IMG/VR virus record: IMGVR_UViG_3300045988_006862
Location: 1 to 5,648 of that record
Source of the DNA: a virus
Strand: one strand, 5' to 3'
DNA length: 5,648 nt
The translations under genes and the position numbers were made by a program. This document shows, in pieces, positions 3,737-4,120 of this stretch. The notes under the pieces are model-generated. The model made no database searches, was not told the origin of the DNA, and saw only the letters and a list, made by a program, of their open reading frames with translations. Every line of letters starts with the position of its first letter. Position 1 is the stretch's first letter.

Positions 3737-4120
3737 ATGAAACGCATAAACTATGTAAAAGCAGACTTCGGAAGCGTAAGCAGCCACTTCAAAGCAAAAG
3801 AGTTCCAGTGCAAAGATAAAAGCGAATATCTGTTAATCGCAACAGAACTAATCGAAATACTGGAAAAAATCCGAAACCACTTCAACGCTCCGGTCATCAT
3901 CAACAGCGGATACAGGACACCAAGCTGGAACAGCAAAGTAAACGGAGCGCCAAACTCCTACCACTGCAAAGGAATGGCAGCAGATATCGTAGTAAAAGGG
4001 CACAGCAGTATAGAAGTCGCAAAGTACGCAGATAGCATCATGGAACAAGGCGGCGTAATCAAATACAAGAATTTCACGCATATTGATGTGCGTGAAGAGC
4101 GATACAGAAAGGGGGTGTAA
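3737..4120 (+). CDS. Zinc peptidoglycan peptidase, M15 family (Peptidase_M15_3 / YcbK-VanY-like); candidate endolysin
   Basis: ATG 3737 follows AAGGAG (3722-3727, 9-nt spacer). The 127-aa protein carries the family signature INSGYRTPSWNSKVNGAPNSYHCKGMAADI (His76-x6-Asp83) and FTHIDVR (His115), plus the N-terminal FKAKEFQC block common in this family. Stop TAA at 4118-4120. Confidence 0.88.
   Translation: MKRINYVKADFGSVSSHFKAKEFQCKDKSEYLLIATELIEILEKIRNHFNAPVIINSGYRTPSWNSKVNGAPNSYHCKGMAADIVVKGHSSIEVAKYADSIMEQGGVIKYKNFTHIDVREERYRKGV

Follow-up and report, generated by a model that had tools for sequence, protein, structure and literature searches.

Peptidases of the Pfam family Peptidase_M15_3 are known from human samples, in which they were reported for five gokushoviruses and six alpaviruses (Roux et al. 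2012, PLoS One, PMC3394797). In the passages of that paper drawn on here, the authors argue that the genes were acquired horizontally, report an affinity of the gokushovirus copies with Faecalibacterium, and propose an endolysin role. Here, we characterized a gene of this kind in the IMG/VR virus record IMGVR_UViG_3300045988_006862. The window, meaning the whole stretch of DNA that we analyzed, comprises 5,648 nucleotides (nt; positions 1 to 5,648 of the record), and the open reading frame (ORF) at 3737-4120 encodes the predicted peptidase. This gene has its family, virus group, position (between the non-coding region and VP5) and proposed role in common with the M15_3 peptidases of human-gut Gokushovirinae and Alpavirinae (PMC3394797). 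The gokushovirus M15 peptidase has been known in kind since 2012, and the window adds one more member to the clade. What we add is a promoter whose -35 element is embedded in a hairpin, the coupling and co-inheritance of the peptidase with a downstream gene of 34 codons (ORF34), a sister sub-lineage that lacks the peptidase, and nearest relatives of Firmicutes type; the hairpin-embedded promoter and the ORF34 linkage are absent from the passages of Roux et al. 2012 (PMC3394797) on which we rely. We propose that the peptidase is probably an endolysin-type muralytic enzyme that serves the release of progeny, with ORF34 as the first candidate partner in the membrane-crossing step.

Cultured marine microviruses of the Occultatumvirinae also carry M15 peptidases (PMC11499846). 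In addition, Gp7 of Ebor, a member of the Tainavirinae that infects Rhodobacter capsulatus, is a peptidoglycan hydrolase that has been purified and that degrades peptidoglycan in vitro (mBio 2025, PMC11980548). Like our predicted hydrolase, Ebor Gp7 is encoded by a microvirus and is similar to genes that tailed phages carry. Gp7 apparently belongs to a different enzyme family, however, as its HHpred match (6SSC) is not among the sequence matches or the top-50 fold matches of the window peptidase, and Ebor encodes a membrane protein of 45 amino acids (aa), whereas the window genome has none. Tailed phages, for example Vibrio phage D478, Faecalibacterium phage FP_oengus and SP6/K1E-like phages, have M15_3 proteins that align with the window peptidase over the whole domain at 44-48% identity and are annotated as endolysins. 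Many relatives are fused to wall-binding or second catalytic domains, whereas the microvirus enzyme stands alone. As a class, the endolysins of tailed phages work with a holin or a signal. We know of no cultured representative of the M15 clade to which the window belongs.

To place the peptidase, we compared it with profile and structure databases. The ORF scored 83.5 bits with Pfam PF08291 Peptidase_M15_3, for which the cutoff is 23.2 (E = 1.5e-23), in an alignment that spans positions 2-108 of the 108 in the profile, and it matched PHROG 894, "endolysin," at E = 6e-36. Other Pfam matches at E <= 0.1 were M15_2 and a sub-threshold M15_4; no VanX-family profile (M15 subfamily D) matched the peptidase in Pfam at this limit, and VanX-type structures were weak fold matches. 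The preliminary description, made from the letters of this DNA alone, had recognized an M15 signature, and we found both the signature and the residue numbering to be correct: S57-G58-Y59-R60, N65, G70 and S74-Y75-H76-x6-D83, followed by a distal H115-x-D117. In an alignment of 51 sequences that extends down to ~40% identity, H76, D83, H115 and D117 are invariant, as are S57, R60, N65 and S74; H76, D83 and H115 are the predicted zinc ligands. When solved structures were searched by sequence, the sole match was PDB 1LBU, the Zn DD-peptidase of Streptomyces albus, whose residues 154 and 161 align with H76 and D83 within the block S-x-H-x-x-G-x-A-x-D.

We used the 51-sequence alignment to build an AlphaFold2 model, which was very confident (mean predicted local distance difference test score 97.6, predicted template modelling score 0.90). 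Foldseek again returned 1LBU as the top match (probability 1.00, root-mean-square deviation 2.0 Å, 87 columns), followed by VanY, Hedgehog-N, Ply500, ChiX, LdcB and LysB4. According to this model the peptidase has the LAS, or Hedgehog-DD-peptidase, fold, and its sequence classes it as a single-domain member of MEROPS M15 subfamily A, clan MD. The best match among solved structures in both sequence and fold, the Zn2+ D-Ala-D-Ala carboxypeptidase of Streptomyces albus G (1LBU), is the type enzyme of M15A. It differs from the window peptidase in being secreted and in having an extra N-terminal peptidoglycan-binding domain, and, with 26% identity over 87 columns, its specificity is not transferable. 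MepK of E. coli (YcbK; NF053624, Peptidase_M15_2), an L,D-endopeptidase, has the clan and the metal motif in common with the peptidase and gave weak matches (42 and 28 bits). MepK is an exported periplasmic housekeeping enzyme, unlike the window peptidase, and orthology was rejected given a score of 42.2 bits against the NF053624 equivalog cutoff of 185.

The gene is widespread. In GenBank phages, 572 records match the peptidase, including many dozens of microviruses (48 named "bajarodmic," 21 "Microviridae," 21 "Dulem" and further Gokushovirus-named records). In a metagenome protein collection, at least 638 cluster representatives matched at E <= 1e-5, and the best 120 of these were 82-94% identical and came mostly from contigs of ~5.6 kilobases (kb). 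Across these representatives (at least 638), the peptidase appears to be under purifying selection, a point that we count in favor of the endolysin reading. The preliminary description had called such ORFs sporadic in metagenomic Microviridae, which is an understatement of their frequency given 572 phage records and hundreds of ~5.6-kb metagenomic contigs. It also overstated the novelty of the gene, which GenBank and nr already name a peptidase: an nr protein entitled "peptidase [Microviridae sp.]" ("MAG TPA"; P0003) is 91% identical to the window peptidase, and GenBank labels include "peptidase M15" (KX5138xx) and "similar to peptidase" (MG945xxx). An unannotated ORF in KT264792 is 74% identical.

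Among 50%-identity cluster representatives, ~12,000 proteins matched at E <= 1e-3 and only four at E <= 1e-30, so that the gokushovirus clade forms a tight, distinct branch. The next-nearest representatives, at 50-57% identity, are multidomain proteins in which M15_3 is joined to GH25, Phage_lysozyme, PG_binding_1, SH3_3, NAGPA or dockerin. Because these nearest relatives are fused to wall-hydrolase or wall-binding domains, we regard them as bona fide wall hydrolases, and the architecture of these nearest non-microvirus relatives is of the Firmicutes/Clostridia endolysin type. The closest cellular match among 185,579 species-representative genomes (44% identity) is a stand-alone protein in a metagenome-assembled genome of Christensenellaceae, where it lies in a tailed-phage block with a holin-like ORF ~2 kb away. 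The base composition and AT skew of the peptidase gene match those of the rest of the genome, from which we conclude that the acquisition is old. Two peptidase-bearing contigs of 11.7 kb and 8.4 kb were considered as prophages and rejected, as they are head-to-tail concatemers of the circular genome. Two further cluster representatives, P0126 (290 aa) and P0122 (144 aa), consist of the N-terminal two-thirds of the peptidase and unrelated sequence, which is VP2-like in P0126; these are probably frameshifted or chimeric assemblies rather than fusions.

We looked for an export device. The preliminary description had noted that the protein lacks a signal or signal-arrest-release (SAR) segment and that no neighboring small ORF has a transmembrane helix, and both observations were upheld. 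The top 19-residue Kyte-Doolittle score within the peptidase is 0.58, and residues 4-8 at its N-terminus belong to the domain itself, as a beta-strand that the model places with confidence, so that the hydrophobic N-terminal segment of signal-peptide and SAR endolysins was not found. Some annotated homologs are longer at the N-terminus; their extensions are basic and hydrophilic only, and we rejected the possibility that these are SAR forms. On the plus strand of the window, no ORF of at least 25 aa reaches a 19-residue Kyte-Doolittle score of 1.6, and no transmembrane ORF was found near the peptidase in ~50 relatives. The transmembrane protein that stands beside the endolysin in a canonical holin-endolysin cassette is thus missing from this neighborhood.

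Directly downstream, ORF34 starts 3 nt past the peptidase stop codon, and its Shine-Dalgarno sequence AAGGGGGTG (4109-4117) consists of the codons for the conserved C-terminal K-G-V of the peptidase; ORF81 (81 codons) reads as the next gene in the same translationally coupled chain. At the protein level, an ORF34 homolog follows the peptidase in 48 of the 51 peptidase-bearing loci and ORF81 is conserved in 47 of them, conservation that marks both as real genes. The order differs in KX513864, where the gene directly upstream of the peptidase is ORF34-like. ORF34 is one amphipathic helix, with a hydrophobic moment of 0.34 and a net charge of 0, and has no match to any Pfam or PHROG family; ORF81 is a helical protein without an assigned function.

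Using the ORF81 variant of a sister sub-lineage as a query, we retrieved 41 genomes. The peptidase is absent from all 41 and ORF34 from 40, while ORF81 is present in every one at 35-58% identity; the backbone of ORF81, ORF39, VP5, VP1, VP2 and VP4 is the same (shown for 3 genomes). Since ORF81 occurs in all 41 peptidase-less genomes, it is most simply read as a gene of the wider lineage that is not tied to the peptidase. We interpret the peptidase and ORF34 as a single unit that was inserted at the edge of the non-coding region, an association that is confounded by phylogeny because it amounts essentially to one split between two clades. The suggestion that the peptidase is an acquired lysis module fits this presence/absence split between sister sub-lineages, as it does the argument in the passages of Roux et al. 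2012 (PMC3394797) drawn on here. L108 (IMGVR_UViG_3300045988_000806) is the sole peptidase-less genome with an ORF34-like match, at 50% identity.

Several hydrophobic ORFs were considered as hidden lysis genes. In the window, a 50-aa ORF at 3109-3261 was evaluated as a possible holin or counterpart of E; its ends are basic, its hydrophobic core is borderline (1.56), and it overlaps the VP4 stop codon and a conserved hairpin. We rejected it because its core is a reading of that conserved DNA hairpin, and it is interrupted by stops in several relatives (L008, L023, L028-L030 and L044). The high hydrophobicity of ORFs on the minus strand was an artefact of its T-rich antisense sequence. A 27-aa hydrophobic ORF ("h27") that peptidase-less relatives have in the non-coding region was promising in 3 genomes and was dropped after 41, as several variants have in-frame stops and the ORF is translated GTTGAA repeat DNA. 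A further ORF of 35 aa ("h35") is intact, has a single transmembrane segment (MIAVGTGATIIAMCSAAFALIAMGIDIIKNWRKSK-like) and lies just upstream of VP5 in L087 (4765-4869), L088 (4554-4658) and seven IMG/VR relatives; its product is a candidate for a small protein of lysis or of the membrane. As a lysis gene swapped in for the peptidase it was rejected: it occurs in 9 of the 41 peptidase-less genomes and in no peptidase-bearing genome, which is too patchy for a clean swap. Finally, an alternative frame inside VP1 contains a hydrophobic stretch (...LLSVLCVYVTIIVIS...) in L014, L017, L019, L030, L034 and L038, which recalls gene E of phiX174, itself an embedded gene. Polar residues and an upstream stop interrupt this stretch in the window (829-948), where it is probably fortuitous.

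Next, we examined how the peptidase is expressed. The preliminary description had placed the peptidase as the first gene after a large non-coding region, behind its own consensus promoter. Its position was confirmed, and so was the perfect consensus; the promoter claim needs qualification in that the -35 element sits in the loop of a terminator-like hairpin and that a second near-consensus site lies upstream. The promoter, of sigma-70 type and on the plus strand, consists of TTGACA (3682-3687), a 16-nt spacer and TATAAT (3704-3709), with an extended -10 TG at 3701-3702, and ends 27 nt ahead of the peptidase ATG. No other site in the window matches at 12/12, and dinucleotide shuffles lead one to expect 0.01 such sites. 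Relatives (L002/L013, L009, L010, L014, L016, L018, L027, L040, L050 and L054-L056) have promoters of 11-12/12 at 22-45 nt before the peptidase ATG, with TTGACA, a 16-17-nt spacer and TATAAT, TACAAT, TAAAAT or TATAGT.

The hairpin at 3671-3699 is perfect, with arms at 3671-3684 and 3686-3699 (inverted repeat I2, 100% complementary) and the -35 hexamer in its loop. Five A precede it and a run of seven T (3695-3701) follows it; as RNA, it folds at -16.6 kcal/mol (z = -5.35). From its shape, 3671-3701 looks like a bidirectional intrinsic terminator that overlaps the promoter. At least ten relatives (L002, L010, L014-L016, L025-L027, L040 and L056) share this layout upstream of the peptidase, namely a stem rich in GC with TTGACA-R as its loop, usually followed by a T-rich tail, and then the -10 element. 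Their stems differ (CCGGAG, GACGGAG, CCGGGG, CCCAGGG and CCCGG). Compensatory double changes were found in 9 of the 12 stem pairs across nine relatives, a set of sequences picked because the hairpin is visible in them; none of 500 shuffles matched the observed score, and slid registers collapse. In many other relatives, this position is taken by a plain promoter or by an upstream ORF. We read the element as an economical overlap of terminator and promoter, which would insulate the peptidase operon from upstream transcription, and the hairpin may also function in the single-stranded DNA form, for example in the priming of the complementary strand. The second promoter-like site lies 45 nt upstream of the main promoter. 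A transcript from it would start at ~3671 and enter the hairpin and T-run, making a ~30-nt RNA or an attenuator possible. A third TTGACA is present at 3569.

The remainder of the genome is that of a gokushovirus, in agreement with the microvirus setting first assigned to it. All genes lie on the plus strand of a circular genome in the ~5-6 kb range, and profiles from Pfam and PHROG matched all five of VP1 (Phage_F), the VP2 pilot protein, the VP3 scaffold of Chlamydia-phage type, the VP4 replication initiator and VP5, as is typical of gokushovirus-type Microviridae. The window is the complete genome in linearized form. An exact 55-nt terminal direct repeat (1-55 = 5594-5648) is an assembly overlap, and the true circle is 5,593 nt, with VP1 intact across the junction; VP1 seems frameshifted there unless the repeat is removed. 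The nearest GenBank records are gut Gokushovirinae sampled in the faeces of humans, pigs and monkeys, and they align with parts of the window genome at ~75-80% nucleotide identity. Gene order in relatives is stable: VP4, non-coding region, peptidase, ORF34, ORF81, VP5, VP3, VP1 and VP2.

Features of the 5,648-nt window, with positions counted from its first letter
Feature	Position	Strand	Basis or remark
VP1 (Phage_F)	wraps window end, to 1277	+	Pfam/PHROG
VP2 pilot protein	to 2133	+	Pfam/PHROG
VP4 replication initiator	2130-3149	+	Pfam/PHROG
Non-coding region	3150-3736 (587 nt)		
Second promoter-like site, 11/12 (TTGACA, 16 nt, TATAAC, TG before)	3637-3664	+	Direct repeats D11, D12; sequence reading
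Shine-Dalgarno AAGGAG of the peptidase	3722-3727	+	9 nt before the peptidase ATG; direct sequence reading
Peptidase ORF, 127 aa	3737-4120	+	ATG start, TAA stop
ORF34, 34 aa	4124-4228	+	
ORF81, 81 aa	4232-4477	+	
ORF39, 39-aa basic protein	4443-4562	+	PHROG 10695
VP5	4574-4816	+	Pfam/PHROG
VP3 scaffold	to 5204	+	Pfam/PHROG

The first half of the non-coding region (3150-3470) retains 79-85% DNA identity, even in gokushoviruses whose other regions show no match. It contains a perfect 11-bp hairpin just past the VP4 stop (3163-3192), CG-rich palindromes (3202-3253) and several TGTTGAAA-like units (3290-3460), and it is probably a replication or packaging signal. We scanned the window against Rfam and found nothing at the gathering threshold, and 3150-3470 had no Rfam match. 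A weak sraA-like match at 3632-3706 was rejected because it reflects the terminator shape only, and a sub-threshold match to the Termite-leu RNA within the VP4 coding region (2180-2267, plus strand; 28.8 bits against a gathering threshold of 51, E = 0.003) is most likely due to chance. A GC-rich palindromic module is found at 3497-3545 (GCCGCGCTTCGC...GCGCAACAGCGGC), and in L010, L016, L025 and L026 a similar GCCGCGCTTCGCGCGGC hairpin lies between the promoter and the Shine-Dalgarno sequence of the peptidase. The non-coding region resembles a mosaic whose modules have been shuffled. A putative small ORF on the plus strand at 3515-3640, with a TTG start at 3515 or an ATG start at 3549, has a stop codon that shares bases with the TTGACA at 3637. 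The C-terminal peptide of this ORF, ...RINQLEKENKLMWY, can be recognized in several relatives, for example as ...IHQLEKENKIMWM.

In the reading that we favor, an ancestor of this gut gokushovirus sub-lineage would have acquired the peptidase from the endolysin pool of tailed phages and Firmicutes. The acquired enzyme would have lost any wall-binding domain and then been inherited vertically. It would be transcribed from the strong promoter, of sigma-70/sigma-A type, where the non-coding region ends and be translated first in the coupled chain of peptidase, ORF34 and ORF81. Late in infection, it would most likely cut stem-peptide bonds of the sacculus and so release progeny, acting as an endolysin in place of, or besides, MraY-type single-gene lysis as in phiX174. 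The best candidates for the membrane-crossing step would be the co-inherited amphipathic ORF34 or a non-specific late failure of the membrane. We infer the enzymatic activity, the bond that is cut, the role in lysis and the route across the membrane from these comparisons; the annotation of homologs in Vibrio phages and Faecalibacterium phage FP_oengus as endolysins argues for the proposal, as does the occurrence of the peptidase throughout one sub-lineage and in none of the 41 sister genomes. Several findings weigh against it. Neither a holin, pinholin or spanin nor a signal peptide or SAR segment was detected in the window or in ~50 relatives, which leaves a cytoplasmic enzyme without an evident path to its substrate. 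ORF34 lacks a hydrophobic core and its net charge is zero, so that it is not an obvious membrane disruptor. Most of the 41 peptidase-less sister genomes are likewise without a recognizable lysis gene, so the lineage probably has another lysis function, to which the peptidase may be only a supplement. With regard to the host, no integrated microvirus with the peptidase query was found in 185,579 species-representative genomes.

The absence of a holin, signal or SAR segment from ~50 genomes would be accounted for directly if the peptidase stayed in the cytoplasm and hydrolyzed wall precursors (the stem of UDP-MurNAc-peptide, D-Ala-D-Ala, or inner-leaflet Lipid I/II), so that starved growing cells burst. 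The logic would be that of phiX174 E, Qbeta A2 and LysM, but by catalysis, and a bare catalytic domain would suffice where relatives carry wall-binding modules. There is precedent in the same clan, as soluble VanX in the cytoplasm of E. coli causes lysis by destroying D-Ala-D-Ala (PMC11514776, in a passage citing Sohya et al. 2014 and Kamioka et al. 2013), and the best solved-structure match is a DD-carboxypeptidase, whose scissile bond also occurs in wall precursors. The co-inherited ORF34 may tune or time such cleavage. Even so, the known strategies for lysis from small genomes or without a holin (phiX174 E, other single-gene lysis, and VanX autolysis) differ from what we find here: E, A2 and LysM are non-enzymatic inhibitors, E being a membrane protein, and VanX belongs to another M15 subfamily, which the window peptidase does not match, its Pfam matches being M15_3, M15_2 and a weak M15_4. 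Moreover, the closest relatives are classical endolysin domains for mature peptidoglycan, some of them in holin-containing cassettes, and an enzyme that cuts cross-links would have no cytoplasmic substrate. We consider cytoplasmic action unlikely.

An entry function, in which a few packaged or capsid-associated copies open the wall locally at genome delivery like the virion-associated lysins of tailed phages and PRD1, is a rather slim prospect, although M15A domains do occur within tail or puncturing proteins of tailed phages (BFVD matches with Gp5-OB-fold and large "cell wall hydrolase" proteins), Ebor Gp7 is present in purified virions in trace amounts only (PMC11980548), and the window peptidase is small (14 kDa) and basic (net charge +6). 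The peptidase is neither fused to nor overlapping any structural gene, and lies in a non-structural block with its own promoter; all 41 sister genomes do without it on the shared backbone (shown for 3 genomes); and a T=1 capsid has little spare volume. In addition, delivery by microviruses is thought to use pilot-protein conduits and penton opening (PMC11980548). The same sister genomes, which evidently lyse anyway, could instead be taken to mean that the peptidase has no lytic role and is a selfish or accessory passenger (in wall remodelling, superinfection exclusion or action against competitors), with lysis left wholly to another unrecognized gene, and the genome does encode conserved small proteins without an assigned function in ORF34 and ORF81. 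We consider this very improbable, since a 384-nt gene is kept in a size-constrained 5.6-kb genome at 82-94% identity across hundreds of variants, and its intact active site and the strongest promoter of the genome argue for a core role in the life cycle. An endolysin-type enzyme therefore remains our preferred reading of the peptidase, as a probable one.

The window itself is not special, being one of hundreds of near-identical genomes, and its remaining interest lies in the export question. Gokushoviruses are among the most abundant single-stranded DNA phages of animal guts. The affinity of the peptidase with endolysins of Firmicutes type bears on the old speculation that some gokushoviruses infect Gram-positive gut bacteria. 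A large clade with a bare endolysin-type domain and no export partner offers a clean experimental handle on gokushovirus lysis: the peptidase either reaches the wall by an unrecognized route, for which ORF34 is the first candidate, or kills from the cytoplasm. Were the latter true, cleavage of cytoplasmic precursors would constitute a catalytic form of single-gene lysis that operates without a holin, signal or spanin.

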